From the NCBI GenBank assembly GCA_038204425.1, contig JBBRCZ010000005.1, positions 32,001 through 96,000 on the forward strand: a stretch of DNA of 64,000 nt. The letters are read 5' to 3'. The stretch comes from Spirochaetia bacterium (GTDB lineage Bacteria; Spirochaetota; Spirochaetia; DSM-27196; Salinispiraceae). Below, piece by piece: positions 18,001 to 24,000 of the stretch. Position numbers: made by a program. Positions within the stretch are counted from its first letter, which is position 1. Each line of letters opens with the position of its first letter.

Positions 18001-21000
18001 AAGCCTTTAGACTCCTTCATACTTTTAGCCCCGACGGAAAGTTGCAGGGGGTAGAACTCAAACCCGGTGTCATTCTCTTGCACCACCATGATGAAAACGT
18101 GGAGCAGTTTTGGATTGGCTGCGCTGTCTACTCAGACCTAGGACGACCAATCGACAGCGAGAATCCAATAGACTGTATTGTTCTGTTGGTGAGTCCTGCC
18201 CAAAAGGCGGCAGAAGAACACTTGGTGGTTCTATCTCGGATTGCGCGCTGGGTTGGGCAGGATGACTTCAAAAAAACTATCACTAGCTTGTGTACGAGCT
18301 TTTCTTAGACGACCCGACTACTATTCGATCTGTTGCTGAAATTTACCTACGTATTAGTTGCCTCTTTTTTATATAACTACGCTTTTGTATATTTATGGTG
18401 AACAAGGGCTGGCAAAAATCTGCTGGGATCCATCAGGAAAGTCTTAAGCTGTCGGTCTTTAAGCCAGACGTCACTGAATCGACATCAATCTTGGCACGAT
18501 TATTGCATGTAATTGGTAGAGGTAAAAAAATGAAGTTGCTAATCGTAGACGACTCCAACATCATGCGCCGGGCCATAGAAAAATATCTAACAGATTTTAA
18601 TCTCGAACTGGTAGGAACTGCCGGTGACGGCGAAGCAGCACTTCAACTCTTTAAGGCTCATCTTCCTGAATTGGTTACGCTTGATATCACCATGCCGCGC
18701 ATGGACGGCTTGGCTTGTCTTGATGAGATTATGCGTTTGCGCCCTGAAACTAAGGTCTTGGTAATTAGCGCTCTAAAGGACCCGTCTACTGGTCTTCAGG
18801 CTTTGCGCAAAGGTGCTAAAGGATTCTTGGCCAAGCCTTTTTCTCCAGAAGAAATACGTAGTGAAGTTCAGCAGATCCTTGGGCTATCATCATGACTGAA
18901 GTAGAACTAAAAGCATTTACTCGTGTTGTTACTCAATACTTTAACAACGTCACCGGTACAGCGGCTCAACTTGGGCTACCCTACATCAAAGGAGAACGCC
19001 AAGAAACCTTTGATTATACTGGCGTGATTGGCATTTCTGGCTCCCGCAAGGGTGGTGTTTATTACACCGCTGGCAAACAGCTTTTAGAAGCATTGGGCGC
19101 CTTTATCCTTGGGGATGAGCCACTCGATGATGAAGCGCTTTACGATTTGGTAGGCGAGCTTACCAACACTATTGCTGGCAACATGCGAGAGATTTTTGGC
19201 TCCAACTTTTTGATTTCGGTCCCAATCATCATGAAGGGTAAAATTGATGATATCGTTATCAAACTCAAACCACCAGTCTTTATAATTCCAATAATCTGGA
19301 ATGGCATGAACAGTCACCTAGCGATTGGCCTGGAGTAGAACATGGAACATTCAATGCTCGACATAATGTGGGTGATAATGGCTGCAAGCTTGGTTTTTGT
19401 TATGCAGGCCGGCTTTGCCATGGTAGAATCTGGCCTTACTCGCTCCAAAAATAGTATCAACGTAGCTATAAAGAATCTGACAGATCTTGGCGTCTCTTTG
19501 ATCGTATACTGGCTAGTGGGCTTTGGCCTCATGTTTGGACTGAGCTTTTCTGGCATTTTTGGCACTAGCGAGTTCTTCTTTGACAGCGGCGACGCCTGGC
19601 CAATGGTCTTTTGCCTTTTTCAGGCCGTGTTCTGCAGCACTGCTGCCACCATCGTGTCGGGCGCAGTGGCGGAGCGCATGCGCTATATTTCGTACATCTT
19701 TGCCACCATACTTATGGCGCTGGTGATCTACCCAGTATTTGGCCACTGGGCCTGGGGCGGCGCCTTGCAAGGGTCAGCAAGTGGTTGGCTGGCTAAGCTT
19801 GGCTTTGTTGACTTTGCAGGGTCTACCGTTGTGCACAGTGTGGGCGCTTGGGTAGCGCTGGCGATTCTAGTTATTATTGGACCTCGCGCCGGTCGCTACA
19901 AGAGCGATGGAACGGTTGCGCCCTTGAGCGGTAGTAACATCCCCATGGCAGTATTGGGAGTAATACTCTTGTGGTTTGGTTGGTTTGGCTTTAACGGCGG
20001 AAGCACTCTGGCAGCGAGTGAAAACGTAGCGGGGATAATCCTTCGCACTTGTTTGGCCGGTGCGGCTGGAATGCTATCTGCATTGCTAATCGGTTGGCCA
20101 CTACTCAAAAAACCCGACGTCAACTTAGTCATCAACGGCGCATTGGCTGGACTTGTTGCCATCACCGCTGGCTGCCACGCCGTCAGTGCGCCTCAGTCAA
20201 TCTTGATTGGTCTGGTTGCTGGCGTGCTGATGTTCGCAAGTAGCATTCTTCTCGACAAATTGCGCATAGATGATGCGGTTGGTGCAATTCCTGTGCACTT
20301 GGTAGCCGGCATCTGGGGTACCTTGGCGGTTGCAATTTTTGGCAATCCAGACATTTTAGGAACCGGCTTGAGCCCATTAGAACAGCTTGGTATACAGGGC
20401 TTAGGTATAACAGTTTGTGGTATGTGGTCGTTTGGCGTGGCTTGGTTAGTTGTAAAGCTTATCAATGCTATCACGCCAATTAGAGTAAGCCAAATAGACG
20501 AAGCCAATGGACTCAACAAAGCAGAACACGGAGTAAGCACCGAGATCTACGATCTATTCTCAGTATTGGATCAGCAAGCAAAAACGGGCGATTTGAGCCT
20601 ACGCGCGCCTGAAGAACCATTTACTGAGGCCGGACAAATTGCCGGGATGTACAACAACGTTATGAGCAAACTGGAAGCCGATACTATTGCCAAAGATGAA
20701 TACTTGCAGATACTGCACAATGTCAGTGACGGTCTTTTTTTGCTGGACCAAGATGGGGTTATTGGGCCGTATTACGCCGCTTCGCTCAACAAGATATTTG
20801 AAACAGATCAATTAGCAGGCCAAAAACTCAGCGCTGTTCTGGCACGTTTTGTGGCCGAAGAAACACGTGCAGTAGCCGAAGACTTTTTGCAGTCCTGCTT
20901 CGATTCAAGAATTGCTTGGCGTCATTTAGAAAAAATGAATCCATTGCTGGACGCCATGGCCTATTTTGACAACGGACAAGGTGATTTTTTGGAAAAAAAC

Positions 21001-24000
21001 TTGCAGTTTCTTTTTAGGCGCCTGGAAGACGGTAGTGTCGTTAAACGATTGTTAATTTTAGTACGTGACACAAGTGCCGAGAAAAATCTAAGCGAAGAGA
21101 TAGAAAAAACGCGCGAACTAGGCAAGCAGGAAATGGAAATGCTGTATCGCGTAATGCACGTTGAACCAAAGACTTTGCAAGAATTTCTTGACGGTCTACA
21201 TCGGGATCTTGAAGCTATAAATGGCCAGTTTAGGGCTGGAGAAGGCAATGTTCACGAAAGGCTCAGCCAGGTTTTTCGCTTAACACATGCCATAAAAGGT
21301 GACGCTGAGCTACTTCAACTTGATTTTATTGGTGGCAAAGCAGAAGAACTAGAGAATCGTGTGCGAGAACTTTTGAAGGTTTCTGAGCCCGGCGGAGAAG
21401 AATTTTTGGCACTGACCCTGCTGTATTCGGAACTTGCTTCGGCATCTACCAAACTGAGAGAACTTTTACAAAAATGGACTGGCTTCCAAGCGCAAACTCA
21501 GTCTATCGGATTTGATGGTTACTTGCGCCAATCTTTGGCCAGCATGGCCAGCCGTTTGGCAAGCCGCTACAACAAAGAGGTAAGTCTAGATGCAAGCGGC
21601 CTCAGTTTGCAGTTTTTGTCACCGCAACTGCGAAAGCCCATCAAAGATATCCTGGTGCAGTTTGTCAGAAACGCAGTGTTTCACGGTTTTGAGACGCCCG
21701 ATGTGCGTGGGAACCAAGGAAAGGCTAGCGCCGGCCTTATTCAAATTAGCGGGCTCCGCCAAGATAAAATGCTAGTTGTACGTTTTAGGGATGATGGCAA
21801 GGGACTTGACACGGGCGCACTACGACAAGAAGCGGTAAAAAGAGGCTTGATGGACAGTGCCAAAGCTAGTGCTATGAGTGAACGCGATGCACTGGGCTTA
21901 ATCTTTCAAAGTGGCTTTACCACGGTAGCGGTCGCAGATTCGGTGGCGGGCAAGGGTATAGGCATGTCACTGGTTCGCAGCTTGGTCAAGGAAACTGGTT
22001 CTAGCCTGAGTATGCGTACCAAAAAGGGTGCCTACACTGAGTTTGTTCTAAGTATTCCGTTGTCGGGAGCCAAGCAATGAATAACCCTGACGGTCCAGTC
22101 TGCAATCACGAGCGCTGCAAGCTCAACCAGTTTTTTCACCACTCTCGAGAAGCCATGTTCATAACCGAGCGGGATGGCAGCTTTGTAGATGTCAACCCGG
22201 CTTTTGAGGATTTACTTGGTTACTCGCGTAGCCATCTTTTGACCAGTCAAGTCAGCTTGGTGCTAGCAAACGAAGATGATAGAGTCGACTATCAACGCAG
22301 CATCGAAACCGATGGTGTGGTACATGACTACCCAATAGCCCTGCGACACCAAGATGGCACACTCTTGTTTGGCATGATTGACGCCATTGTATGGCGCTCC
22401 AATGGACGAATAGCTGGCTACCACGGCATAATCCGCACACGCGCTGCACTTATGGAGTCGTTTCGCAGCTATCTCAACCGACTCAAAGCTGAGAAACATC
22501 AAGTGAGGCAAGAGCGCCGCAATCTCATTTCTGATACGCAAATGCTGACCCGCTATTTGACTGATGACTTGATTGAATACATCAAAAAAACTGGCCGCAA
22601 TCCACTAGAAACCAGCCAACAAAGGGTGAGCGTCTTGTTCTTTGACATTCGCAACTCAACCGGAATTGCCGAAAAGCTTAGCCCGGATCAGTTTGCTTCT
22701 TTTTTGAGTGACATCCTGACCGACATTATGGATCTAATTTACGGCTGCCAAGGCTCGGTTAATAAAATACTGGGCGACGGCATTATGGCTACCTTTGGTG
22801 TGCCACTCTCTACAGGTACCGACTCTTTTCATGCTGTTGAGGCGGCTTTGCACATTCGGGACTACCTCAAGACTTTTAACGATGTTAGGCCCGATTTTCT
22901 CATACAACCAGTTGCTGCCGGCATTGGCATTGCAACCGGAACGGTCTTCGCCGGTGTTATTGGATCGGTTAGACGGCAAGAATACACCGTACTTGGTGAC
23001 GCAGTAAATATCGCTAGTCGATTGGAGTCTCTCACCAAACAAGCAGGAGAAACTATACTACTCGACGAAACCACTTTTCAAGAGGTGCGCGAAACCTATG
23101 CCTGTCGCCCGGTTCTGGAAGGTCGCCTGCGGGGTCGAGAAGAAGAAGTGCGTATTTACGGCATAAGATAGTTTCTTGCATAGTTAAATTGGCAACATTC
23201 GCTTGCCAAAATGTAAAGCTTACCTTACATTTTAGCGTATGCACTTGGGGGTGTTATAGGAATGATCAAGCGAAGCAGACTCTCCATATATACGTTTATT
23301 GCGGTATTTAGTTCTATCTTAATCGTTGGCACGCTTGCGATGCCTTTGGCCTTGGATAGTATTCAAAAAAACTACATTTCCATCCAAGCAGACGTTAACG
23401 CCCGTCAAGCAAAAGCTATGGCTCAGTTTATTCGCTCACGCGTGGCTCAAGGCGTAAGTCGTGAGCAGGTGATCGAGGACTTCCAAGCAAGCATCCAAGG
23501 CAGTGCCACCGAACGTGGTTATGTCTGCATTGTGGACCGCATAAGCACCAATTTTTTGTGTCATCCCATGACTTCGATGCTTGGCCAATCGGTGGCGGTT
23601 AAAAAAGCGGTCTTTGACCGTAGTTTTAACCGCAATCAATTTGAACCTTGGGAACAAGCTATCACGAACCCGCAAAGTGGGAGCGGACTTTTGGCTTTTG
23701 ACAACTTTAAGGCCGAGGAAGTTGTCCACTCAGAAGTTATTGAAGAACTTGGTTGGGTTGTAAATTCTCATGAGAACACAGAACGAGTCCAAACCGAAAT
23801 AGCAAACATCCGCACCTATGTTGTCATCGGCGCTGCTATTTTTGCTTTTCTTTTGGCGTTTCCAATTTCGTTTGCTGTGCGATCGGTTAGCCGCAGATAC
23901 GAAAGACAAATCGAACATAGCAACATGCTGATTGCTGCAGAACAAGAAAAAGCTGACAACTTGCTGCTTAACATCTTACCTTCTTCTATTGCTCGTCGTA

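Follow-up and report, generated by a model that had tools for sequence, protein, structure and literature searches.

The cheY-cheX-amtK locus

The window analyzed here, a 64,000-nt stretch of a Spirochaetia contig, carries cheY, cheX, and then amtK on the forward strand between positions 18530 and 22080, as read from an ORF scan. The cheY gene (18530..18895) encodes a 121-aa CheY-like single-domain response regulator (Pfam Response_reg, E 6e-28), and cheX (18892..19338) encodes a 148-aa putative CheY-P phosphatase (Pfam CheX PF13690, E 3.9e-15). The third gene, amtK (19342..22080), encodes a 912-aa fusion protein that we describe from its ORF, Pfam and PDB matches, a family alignment, AF2 models, and Foldseek searches. 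The longest open frame for cheY begins at 18395; we chose the ATG at 18530, which is preceded by a GAGG motif and yields the MKLLIVDD start shared by orthologues. The ORF coordinates confirm the gene order given in an initial annotation of this DNA, with a 4-nt overlap between cheY and cheX and a 3-nt gap between cheX and amtK. Two genes for class III nucleotidyl cyclases follow on the same strand. The first (22077..23171) encodes a 364-aa PAS-cyclase (Pfam Guanylate_cyc, 4.4e-23; PAS, 1e-7), and its start overlaps the amtK stop by 4 nt. The second (23262..24563) encodes a 433-aa cyclase (Guanylate_cyc, 1.9e-59) with TM segments at residues 13 to 31 and 187 to 205 around an outside domain of ~155 aa, and with a weak match to sCache_2 that falls short of the Pfam cut-off (E 0.0057); a 90-nt gap precedes this gene, which could be either part of the amtK unit or separate from it. 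No MCP or CheW gene was found on the 195-kb contig bearing amtK.

AmtK joins an Amt domain to a CheA-type kinase core

Pfam places Amt, Hpt, and HATPase_c domains in the single 912-residue protein, as first proposed. The Amt domain (residues 1 to 400; 19342..20541) has 11 TM segments and no signal peptide; it matches Ammonium_transp (PF00909) over residues 10 to 398 (E 3.8e-115) and TIGR00836 (400 bits). Kyte-Doolittle analysis gave 13 windows merging to 11 hydrophobic segments (residues 8 to 371), the number originally counted. The top PDB sequence matches of this part are the sensor Amts 8qj3 (2.3e-118) and 6eu6 (3.6e-101), and bit scores were 400 and 343 against two proven ammonium receptors, compared with 199 for Af-Amt1 and 132 for AmtB. 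AmtK carries W136, F97, F217, S221, H165, and H319, equivalents of the N1/N2 site (Q22, F25, E29, N45, D48, T103, and S106), and N265; among 21 Amt-fused family members, the residues of the pore and of the N1/N2 site show little or no variation. Two free-standing amt genes in the same genome both encode a signal peptide and have a P-II (glnK) gene next downstream, whereas amtK has neither feature.

After the Amt domain, AF2 predicts a HAMP-like two-helix connector (residues 384 to 460, with helices at 384 to 415 and 429 to 460; 20491..20721), which aligns without gaps to Sd-Amt1 residues 404 to 445, a region named a HAMP domain by the authors of that structure in the accessible text of PMC11152129. 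A predicted cytoplasmic PAS fold follows (residues 464 to 576; 20731..21069), and then a helix (578 to 604). The AF2 model of residues 455 to 610 reached a pLDDT of 90.1 and a pTM of 0.76, and its top Foldseek matches were the PAS domains of FixL, LOV, and EcDOS (E 3e-6 to 1e-4; TM 0.5 to 0.67). The Pfam HAMP, PAS, and H-kinase_dim models did not match AmtK (HAMP and H-kinase_dim at E<=10), and the HAMP-like and PAS assignments are thus putative ones that draw on predicted structure and colinearity with Sd-Amt1.

The Hpt (P1-like) helical bundle spans approximately residues 609 to 705 (21166..21456; Pfam Hpt, 612 to 699, E 1.1e-6, or 6.9e-8 when the fragment was searched alone); its best PDB sequence match, 3kyi, was weak (E 0.053). 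Its phospho-acceptor, His649, is encoded at 21286-21288. H649, K652, and G653 are invariant across 21 Amt-fused rows; in a wider alignment of 89 rows, H649 and K652 remain invariant and G653 is present in at least 90%. A single long helix predicted by AF2 (residues 685 to 742; 21394..21567) links the Hpt to the kinase core and occupies the place of the P3 dimerization hairpin of CheA. The CheA-type ATP-binding domain P4 (residues 747 to 906; 21580..22059) is recognized by sequence and fold: Pfam finds HATPase_c at residues 767 to 908 (E 5.7e-10), phmmer against PDB sequences matches residues 734 to 907 to CheA P4 1i58 (E 1.2e-24), and Foldseek aligns the domain with CheA P4 structures at a TM of 0.78 to 0.86 and an rmsd of 2.2 to 3.8 A. 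The N, G1, F, and G2 boxes are invariant or nearly so in the 21 Amt-fused members, with R776, N777, H781, G782, D817, G819, G821, F855, G870, G872, and G874 unchanged in all rows, and in wider sets of 89 and 148 relatives, H649 and the N, G1, and G2 boxes show either no variation or at least 90% conservation. All catalytic residues of AmtK are therefore conserved, and the sequence conservation indicates that the Amt-kinase fusion is real and under selection. P2, P5/CheW, and a recognizable P3 were absent by Pfam, and the protein ends at residue 912, six residues past P4, which bears out the earlier report that P5 is missing.

The kinase is linked to a distinct CheY and a CheX across two phyla

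The operon CheY has its phospho-acceptor, Asp52, encoded at 18683-18685, and D7, D8, D52, and K102 are invariant among 23 CheYs from such kinase-cheY-cheX triads. An alignment of 21 CheX sequences, among them the canonical one of contig C10, shows no variation at E89, N92, or P111; E89 and N92 form an E-x2-N pattern that we take to be the CheC/CheX active-site motif.

A homologue search with AmtK residues 420 to 912 returned 65 clusters, whose named sources are all spirochaetes. The initial annotation had described about 65 such clusters with Amt, Hpt, and HATPase domains, named only from spirochaetes and 35 to 50% identical; the names and the identity range stood, but 61 clusters carry PF00909 and PF02518 at 35 to 50% identity, and 57 of these also carry PF01627, so that all three domains are found in 57 rather than in all 65. 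In 16/16 Amt-fused loci from other Spirochaetota genomes, the kinase gene is directly preceded by cheY-cheX in the same orientation. Non-Amt spirochaete relatives have cheY in 4/4 loci and cheX in 3/4 (in L043 the pair lies ~2.7 kb downstream of the kinase; in L050 cheY was found and cheX was not). The kinase, cheY, and cheX occur together in all 54 gammaproteobacterial loci that are 12 kb or longer, and spirochaete and gammaproteobacterial triad CheYs are 43 to 45% identical. The linkage is thus strict across two phyla. The two further P5-less triads noted in this genome are indeed present (C7:118885-121809 and C21:19421-21239). At E<=1e-10, the PAS-Hpt-P4 module has matches in at least 930 representative clusters, which carry a wide variety of sensors, and a literature search found no description of this kinase family. 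Sensor-fused CheA-core kinases form a large family, and the Amt fusion is one of its branches.

A model for ammonium signaling by AmtK

We hypothesize, with a probability of roughly 0.6, that AmtK is a receptor kinase for ammonium, that it phosphorylates the CheY of its operon, and that CheX resets the signal as a phosphatase. The trimeric Amt-fold domain would admit NH4+ through the normal selectivity filter and bind it at the lateral N1/N2 site. The resulting conformational change would pass through the Amt C-terminal region and the HAMP-like connector to the cofactor-less PAS domain and alter the activity of P4, which would phosphorylate His649 in AmtK's own Hpt. Asp52 of the operon CheY, whose gene is the second one upstream of amtK, would then receive the phosphoryl group. 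CheA-type kinases are not known to act as phosphatases themselves, and for this reason we assign removal of the phosphate from CheY to the co-encoded CheX, which would make the signal fast and resettable. Such signaling would need no chemoreceptor, CheW, or methylation. We infer the ligand (ammonium), the sign of its action, and the target of CheY-P, as well as, from gene linkage only, the transfer from AmtK to the neighboring CheY. The lateral site has been described for Ks-Amt5 and Sd-Amt1, and ammonium alters the phosphorylation of the former and the cyclase activity of the latter, according to the accessible parts of PMC5764959 and PMC11152129, respectively. The Amt fold is trimeric, whereas a CheA-type kinase normally works as a dimer, and we counted this against the model.

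A literature search found no report of a CheA-type transducer on an Amt receptor. AmtK is a new transducer type for such receptors, as had been suggested, and the operon appears to represent a novel bacterial route of ammonium signaling.

Possible outputs of the operon and alternative roles

The initial annotation had held that CheY phosphorylation lets ammonium steer the flagellar motor; this claim is not supported in that form, since nothing links the operon CheY to FliM and the triad CheYs of both phyla form one group (support, 90/74) separate from the canonical CheYs of this genome. Its caveat that two cyclases follow proved to point to a serious rival, as spirochaete triad operons repeatedly include class III cyclases. 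The output of AmtK may be the motor, cAMP, or both: we consider FliM and the PAS-adenylate cyclase about equally probable as CheY-P targets, and they are not mutually exclusive. A motor output, in which CheY-P made by AmtK would bind the FliM N-terminal peptide and alter rotation of the periplasmic flagella, so that ammonium would bias swimming with no part played by receptor arrays, CheW, or methylation, is a tentative proposal. The operon CheY, which falls in the triad clade, belongs to the chemotaxis type (the PDB sequences it matches best are the CheYs 6er7 at 3.9e-27, that of Thermotoga maritima at 2.5e-23, and Borrelia burgdorferi CheY3, 3hzh, at 7e-20), and among the receivers of this genome, its clade is the nearest neighbor of the canonical CheYs. 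FliM of this genome begins MTETLSQDEIDQLL, presumably the CheY-binding motif. In other settings, CheX serves as a phosphatase of CheY-P in chemotaxis (PMC10782961, accessible text). In a gammaproteobacterial order, FliM was found in 13/19 kinase-bearing genomes versus 47/132 without the kinase, and also in 5/5 further triad genomes. Moreover, 12/16 Amt-fused loci have no cyclase nearby and several AmtK genomes lack a close homologue of the PAS-cyclase (E<=1e-40), so the core must act on a target whose gene lies elsewhere. However, FliM, FlhA, and FliG were undetectable in 4 of the 19 kinase-bearing genomes (G459, G536, G543, and G550; completeness not given, and three look related), all of which have CheX beside the kinase and one long ChpA-like CheA cluster each. 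The conserved helix-4 face of triad CheYs also has T and G/A where canonical CheYs of the same genome have L and V, and without an adaptation system the response would presumably be a kinesis rather than gradient sensing. Doubtful to a similar degree is a cAMP output, in which CheY-P would bind and regulate the PAS-cyclase and ammonium would set the cAMP level; in sister operons, the kinase would directly phosphorylate a receiver-cyclase fusion. Besides the 4-nt overlap with amtK, a cyclase adjoins 4/16 Amt-fused loci, the locus of G233, the C7 triad of this genome (a HAMP-cyclase), and 3/4 non-Amt spirochaete triads, two of them as receiver-Guanylate_cyc fusions (L046 and L049). Full-length orthologues of the PAS-cyclase occur in 4/400 other Spirochaetota genomes, all four AmtK bearing, and the nearest relatives of its catalytic domain adjoin triad kinases in G399, G290, G346, G394, and G345. 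Across 6 aligned rows, D190, K230, D234, N311, and R315 do not vary; we take them to be the metal-binding and catalytic residues of the PAS-cyclase, and these sites thus appear intact. By analogy, the Pil-Chp system of Pseudomonas aeruginosa, a CheA-type kinase system with CheY-like regulators, reportedly controls the class III cyclase CyaB. Complex prediction from our own alignments, with no interface supplied, scored PAS-cyclase plus CheY at 0.55 (runs of 0.57, 0.55, and 0.49) against 0.00 for the best of 3 controls, with at least 82% of contacts agreeing between runs and a partner pLDDT of at least 83. The mark used is passed by 116/157 solved complexes and 2/215 mismatched pairs, and scores of <=0.60 include only 18 of the 157 solved complexes and both passing mismatches. 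By the tool's own guidance, weak support of this kind is wrong more often than not, except for a guess with high prior likelihood; the model may also merely put CheY where related proteins have a fused receiver. Against a cAMP output, the adjacent cyclase is missing from 12/16 Amt-fused loci, neither window cyclase has a tblastn match (E<=1e-3) in the 54 gammaproteobacterial loci, and the PAS domain may sense something unrelated. Since this genome has 14 Guanylate_cyc matches in 2.84 Mb, some cyclase adjacency is expected.

Two other roles were considered. It is a long shot that a targetless CheY together with CheX acts as a sink, draining phosphate from the Hpt and thereby quickly switching off another regulator, for example a receiver-cyclase or a canonical CheY. 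Loci L046 and L049 do encode two receivers (a receiver-cyclase and CheY) beside one kinase, the C21 triad has an additional receiver-domain protein, the triad is kept in genomes without flagellar genes, and sink roles of CheY-like domains are discussed in the accessible text of PMC10782961. Nevertheless, 12/16 Amt-fused loci have no second receiver nearby, none was seen in the gammaproteobacterial loci, and a sink needs no CheY subfamily so conserved across two phyla. It is less far-fetched, though still improbable, that AmtK is mainly an importer whose kinase reports or regulates flux, i.e., a transceptor rather than a pure receptor. All pore residues are intact, and the N1/N2 motif and the “exit” residue N265 are common to presumably transporting paralogues: the C4 paralogue has all of the N1/N2 residues and the C12 paralogue has all but two. 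These residues thus fail to separate sensors from transporters, and AmtK may therefore still transport. In the accessible text of PMC11152129, proven transporters fall in the same motif cluster as sensors, and plant AMT1 proteins with this motif do transport. On the other hand, the two proven fused relatives bind ammonium without transporting it (accessible parts of PMC5764959 and PMC11152129), and the genome already has two amt-glnK pairs. Transport would touch the first step only and is compatible with the signaling model.

Comparison with known systems

Like AmtK, Ks-Amt5 of “Candidatus Kuenenia stuttgartiensis” (6eu6) is an Amt-fold sensor with a C-terminal histidine kinase fusion; the two keep all pore motifs and N1/N2 ligands (E 3.6e-101 between Amt domains). 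In Ks-Amt5, however, a classical DHp and CA directly follow the Amt domain, with no HAMP, PAS, or Hpt described in the accessible text of PMC5764959, whereas AmtK combines a CheA-type P4 with an Hpt as a distinct domain and has a CheY and a CheX dedicated to it. Among solved Amt domains, the closest is that of Sd-Amt1 from Shewanella denitrificans (8qj3/8qpf; E 2.3e-118), which shares the N1/N2 residue numbering (Q22, F25, E29, N45, and D48) and a colinear two-helix connector after the Amt domain but, in the accessible portion of PMC11152129, has a GGDEF diguanylate cyclase output and no kinase, PAS, or phosphorelay. CheA resembles AmtK in its Hpt, its P4 ATP-binding domain, and its partners CheY and CheX. 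According to the accessible part of a CheA survey (PMC10782961), a CheW-like P5 is present in 100% and P3 in all, with no sensor domain. AmtK, in contrast, has no P5 and no detectable P3 and carries its own membrane sensor and PAS. The Pil-Chp system reportedly differs from AmtK in using an MCP (PilJ), CheW-like adaptors, and methylation, with a kinase that is not sensor fused and no CheX. It resembles the AmtK operon in combining a CheA-type kinase with CheY-like regulators, and its output includes a class III adenylate cyclase.

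Architecture of AmtK and its gene row

The product of amtK (19342-22080, + strand; 912 aa) carries the fusion described in the initial annotation: Pfam models for Ammonium_transp (PF00909; residues 10-398, E = 3.8e-115, covering profile positions 2-396 of 399), Hpt (612-699, E = 1.1e-6), and HATPase_c (767-908, E = 5.7e-10) all matched. The Amt domain scored 400 bits against TIGR00836 (cut-off, 343), and its top matches among PDB sequences were the two characterised Amt receptors, Sd-Amt1 of Shewanella denitrificans (8qj3; 400 bits) and Ks-Amt5 of "Candidatus Kuenenia stuttgartiensis" (6eu6; 343 bits); Af-Amt1 reached 199 bits and E. 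coli AmtB reached 132 bits. The cytoplasmic transducer (HAMP-like, PAS, Hpt, and P4; residues 400-912) is fused to the C terminus of Amt. Residues 734-907 matched the CheA P4 domain 1i58 in the PDB sequence search (E = 1.2e-24), and no CheW, P2, or H-kinase_dim domain was detected with Pfam.

An AlphaFold2 model of residues 380-912, built from an 89-row alignment (mean pLDDT, 88.6; pTM, 0.47), predicted two helices (384-415 and 429-460), an alpha/beta domain (464-576), a further helix (578-604), a helical bundle containing His649 (609-678, extending into the next helix), a single long helix (685-742), and the P4 domain (747-906), which matched CheA P4 structures with TM scores of 0.78 to 0.86 (Foldseek). 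Modelled alone (pLDDT, 90.1; pTM, 0.76), the alpha/beta domain had a predicted PAS fold, with FixL, LOV, and EcDOS domains as its top Foldseek matches (E = 3e-6 to 1e-4). The two helices that follow Amt align without gaps to Sd-Amt1 residues 404-445, designated a HAMP domain by its authors (PMC11152129). Pfam models for HAMP, PAS, and H-kinase_dim were undetected in the linker pieces at E <= 10, and residues 380-473 alone found no match in the PDB by phmmer; the evidence for the HAMP-like and PAS domains is therefore the predicted structure together with the colinearity with Sd-Amt1. The order along the protein is Amt, HAMP-like connector, PAS, Hpt, long helix, and P4.

The presence of cheY and cheX upstream of amtK, also noted in the initial annotation, was borne out by matches to Response_reg and PF13690 in a tight row of + strand frames. 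The cheY frame occupies 18530-18895 (+); its longest version opens at 18395, and a GAGG motif precedes the ATG at 18530, which yields the N terminus MKLLIVDD common to all orthologues. The cheX gene (18892-19338, +) overlaps cheY by 4 nt, and amtK follows after a gap of 3 nt. A gene for a PAS-cyclase (22077-23171, +) overlaps the amtK stop by 4 nt, and a second class III cyclase gene lies 90 nt further on (23262-24563, +). Two transmembrane segments of this second cyclase flank an outside domain of ~155 aa with a weak sCache_2 match (E = 0.0057), and it is probably a receptor cyclase with a ligand of its own. The row continues, after 60 nt, with a 294-aa frame (24624-25508, +) that has a lipoprotein-like signal sequence and matches neither Pfam nor NCBIfam models. 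Consensus scans gave 8 promoter-like sites (10.3 expected) and 9 terminator-like sites (10.2 expected), neither above chance, so overlaps and gaps alone define the limits of the operon. Directly upstream of cheY, the frame at 15819-18308 (+) encodes an unusual regulated-transporter fusion of 829 aa, in which a Na+/H+ exchanger domain (E = 5.7e-50) is combined with a universal stress protein domain and with a PTS EIIA-2-like domain whose match is weak and under the Pfam cut-off.

Conservation of AmtK and its partner proteins

The conservation set comprised 21 Amt-fused family members, 45 to 59% identical to AmtK overall. Invariant in all 21 were the pore residues W136, F97, F217, S221, H165, and H319 (recruitment Trp/Ser, Phe gate, and twin-His), the N1/N2-site and access equivalents F25, E29, D48, T103, S106, and N265, the motif His649-x2-K-G, and the N, G1, F, and G2 boxes of the kinase; Q22 and N45 were kept in at least 90%. 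Equivalences to Sd-Amt1 and Ks-Amt5 were taken from the numbering given in PMC11152129 and PMC5764959. The free-standing Amt paralogues of the same genome served as a control: the copy on contig C4 has every "sensor" residue, and the copy on C12 lacks two. Proven transporters also fall in the same motif cluster, according to PMC11152129. Since paralogues and proven transporters share it, the N1/N2 motif does not mark AmtK as a pure sensor, and we ruled out this motif and the N265 "exit block" as pure-sensor markers on the evidence of the amt-glnK paralogues. What sets AmtK apart is that both paralogues have a signal peptide and a P-II (glnK) gene downstream, whereas AmtK has neither.

The CheY of the triad (P5-less CheA-core kinase, CheY, and CheX) is a stand-alone receiver with invariant D7, D8, D52, and K102, and among PDB sequences it matches CheYs best. 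In a tree of 44 receivers, from which one truncated gammaproteobacterial row was dropped, triad CheYs of the Amt type, of other spirochaetes, and of gammaproteobacteria formed one group (support, 90/74), with one long-branch row from the same genome as AmtK inside its unresolved base. The canonical CheYs of contigs C10 and C3 fell in a neighbouring group, together with the CheY of a triad on C21. Triad CheYs have a common helix-4 motif, SALxDxxT(G/A)xxAxxKGAxGF, unlike the canonical copies. CheX matched PF13690 (E = 3.9e-15) and kept E89, N92, and P111 in 21 of 21 rows, canonical CheX included; we take its E-x2-N (E89, N92) to be the active-site motif of CheC/CheX/FliY phosphatases.

Linkage of the triad and breadth of the kinase family

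When 401 Spirochaetota genomes were searched with AmtK residues 421-912, the module was found in 46 at E <= 1e-30. We took 20 places with open frames of at least 870 aa and left out matches cut by contig ends (genomes G233, G236, and G400). Amt fusions were identified by tblastn at 16 of the 20; at every one of these, the kinase gene is immediately preceded by cheY and cheX in the same orientation. The other four have different sensors (e.g., 7TMR-DISM or HAMP), with cheY at all four and cheX at three; one of these loci (L043) has its cheY-cheX pair ~2.7 kb downstream of the kinase, and at another (L050) cheY alone was found. Gammaproteobacterial loci, on contigs of metagenome-assembled genomes (MAGs), were retrieved with a narrower alignment of Amt-less relatives and therefore represent one lineage (Steroidobacteraceae and relatives); kinase, cheY, and cheX occurred together in all 54 such loci of at least 12 kb. 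The triad is thus a conserved unit.

Several neighborhoods had features of their own. One Amt-fused triad has a 253-aa FliG-like gene 3 kb upstream (L035:59-820, +), and an MCP gene is convergent to another (L038:7526-9682, -); each is a single case and may be due to chance. In three gammaproteobacterial loci (L058, L089, and L106, at ~1400-5000), a conserved 680- to 706-aa protein with a C-terminal TonB_C domain is encoded upstream of kinase-cheY-cheX, followed in two of the three by a Ser/Thr protein kinase; the TonB_C protein may be an envelope-linked input. Two other triads of the AmtK genome are unlike its Amt-type triad: that on C7 (114500-124500; L132) consists of a HAMP-cyclase, CheY, CheX, and a 697-aa kinase with no Hpt at E <= 1e-4, and that on C21 (16000-25000; L133) consists of a 479-aa kinase, CheX, CheY, and a 520-aa protein with a C-terminal receiver domain.

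A search of 1.84 billion proteins with the PAS-Hpt part of AmtK (residues 440-735, without P4) matched at least 930 representative clusters at E <= 1e-10; relaxing the threshold to E <= 1e-3 raised this to 1513. From the 148 best newly listed representatives a fixed sample of 59 was scanned: Hpt was found in 58 and HATPase_c in 57, and none had CheW or H-kinase_dim. Sensors in this sample included PilJ (17), HAMP (8), PAS_4 (3), Amt (2), Reg_prop (2), dCache (2), CHASE4 (1), and GAF (1). In a protein atlas, similar clusters appeared in Myxococcota, Bdellovibrionota, and Thermodesulfobacteriota, and 38% of the members of one Hpt+HATPase look-alike cluster carry cNMP_binding. These are no more than leads, the last of which hints at cyclic nucleotides as a further input to this kinase family.

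Flagellar motor and cyclase as candidate targets of CheY

Anatomy, conservation, and gene linkage give good support to the core reading, in which an Amt receptor (a putative ammonium binder) would drive a CheA-type kinase core. The kinase core would phosphorylate the CheY of its own operon, and CheX would reset the signal. The initial annotation had proposed this direct phosphorylation and, beyond it, that ammonium steers the flagellar motor without arrays, CheW, or methylation. Judged from the sequences, the receptor-kinase-CheY core of that proposal appears sound; its weak point is the motor as output.

For this organism we regard the flagellar switch and the co-translated PAS-cyclase as about equally probable targets of phosphorylated CheY, and the two are compatible. 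The motor is favored by the chemotaxis kind of the triad CheY, by the role of CheX as a known chemotaxis phosphatase, and by the FliM of the same genome, which begins MTETLSQDEIDQLL; however, the triad CheY belongs to a clade separate from canonical CheYs. Among 151 genomes sampled from the gammaproteobacterial order, FliM was found in 13 of 19 that bear the kinase versus 47 of 132 that do not. Against the motor as a general target, no FliM was found in the other 6 of the 19, among them G490 and G463 (which has FlhA fragments), and in four of them (G459, G536, G543, and G550) no FliM, FlhA, or FliG was found. Each of these four nonetheless carries CheX beside the kinase, and just one further cluster, whose CheA is very long and ChpA-like. 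The triad thus seems able to work without flagella, although the four genomes are a strong hint rather than proof, since their completeness is unreported and three of them look related.

Class III cyclases, for their part, occur in the operon in the window, at 4 of the 16 Amt-fused loci, in G233, at three of the four non-Amt spirochaete triads, and at the C7 triad. Full-length orthologues of the PAS-cyclase were found in only 4 of 400 other genomes, all 4 of which bear AmtK and 3 of which have the cyclase gene adjoining amtK; the nearest relatives of its catalytic domain adjoin triad kinases in five further genomes. Cyclases are common in the AmtK genome (14 matches), yet that is only ~1 per 200 kb. 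At two spirochaete loci (L046:2115-3242 and L049:8498-9595, -), receiver-Guanylate_cyc fusions lie beside cheY, cheX, and a P5-less kinase with a HAMP or 7TMR-DISM sensor. These fusions look like two-component systems with cyclic-nucleotide output, and since the cyclases themselves carry a receiver, the kinase very probably feeds the cyclase directly there. A predicted complex of CheY with the PAS-cyclase scored 0.55 (best of three controls, 0.00), which we count as weak support: of 157 solved complexes, 116 passed the mark used, as did 2 of 215 mismatches, and scores of 0.60 or less included only 18 of the 157 solved complexes and both passing mismatches. Runs from custom alignments shared at least 82% of contacts with partner pLDDT of at least 83, in output that came with no reported interface. 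Against the cyclase as a general target, 12 of the 16 Amt-fused loci have no adjacent cyclase, tblastn with both window cyclases found none in the 54 gammaproteobacterial loci, and at E <= 1e-40 several AmtK genomes lack a close homologue. A smaller third possibility is that CheY and CheX form a phosphate sink.

In the boldest reading, AmtK, CheY, and CheX would form a self-contained, array-free taxis pathway, from a trimeric transporter-fold receptor through the CheA core and CheY to the flagellar switch, by which spirochaetes adjust their swimming to ammonium with no need of MCPs, CheW, or methylation; the kinase family, with its at least 930 clusters, would then form a parallel and widespread chemosensory branch missed by CheW-based CheA surveys. 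We consider this reading unlikely, at roughly one chance in four. By either output, the arrangement suggests that in sediment and gut spirochaetes nitrogen availability could feed into behavior or second-messenger levels.

Comparison with CheA and with characterised Amt receptors

AmtK shares with CheA a P1-like Hpt domain (PF01627, with H649 invariant) and, by sequence and fold matches, a CheA-type HATPase_c (P4). The P3 model (PF02895) was undetected in AmtK (E <= 10) and in all 59 sampled relatives, and the predicted structure has the long helix 685-742 in its place; HMMs often miss the P3 of CheA, according to PMC10782961. We confirmed the earlier observation that P5 is absent: neither AmtK nor any of the 59 relatives matched PF01584, and the chain ends six residues past P4. 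The two canonical CheAs of the same genome, one in a standard cheA-cheW-cheX-cheY operon on C10 and the other on C1, do carry the CheW-like P5. That genome has ten MCPsignal matches, nine above the Pfam cut-off and none on contig C5, which carries amtK and where no MCP or CheW gene was found. Whereas CheA is sensor-less and fed by MCPs, AmtK has its own Amt and PAS domains. A CheA survey (PMC10782961) defines CheA by HATPase_c plus CheW, with CheW in 100% of CheAs and no sensor domain; because the definition needs both, the sensor-fused, P5-less family falls outside it. AmtK thereby calls into question a working definition that makes CheA sensor-less and invariably coupled to arrays.

The literature searched, which was that outside subscription-only papers, held no description of Amt-CheA or Amt-Hpt fusions or of P5-less sensor CheAs, and the supplements of PMC11152129, on Sd-Amt1, contained no Hpt, HATPase, CheA, Spirochaet, or Treponema. 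To a large family of sensor-carrying, CheW-domain-less CheA-core kinases undescribed in that literature, AmtK would give a known ligand, and the family is therefore experimentally tractable, with kinase activity, CheY phosphorylation, swimming, and cAMP as read-outs. The receptor itself is of a known kind, and AmtK is a new type of transducer for it: Ks-Amt5 signals through a classical histidine kinase and Sd-Amt1 through a diguanylate cyclase, whereas AmtK has a CheA-type core. If the reading holds, this would be the third output type for Amt receptors and the first to involve parts of the chemotaxis type (Hpt, P4, CheY, and CheX).
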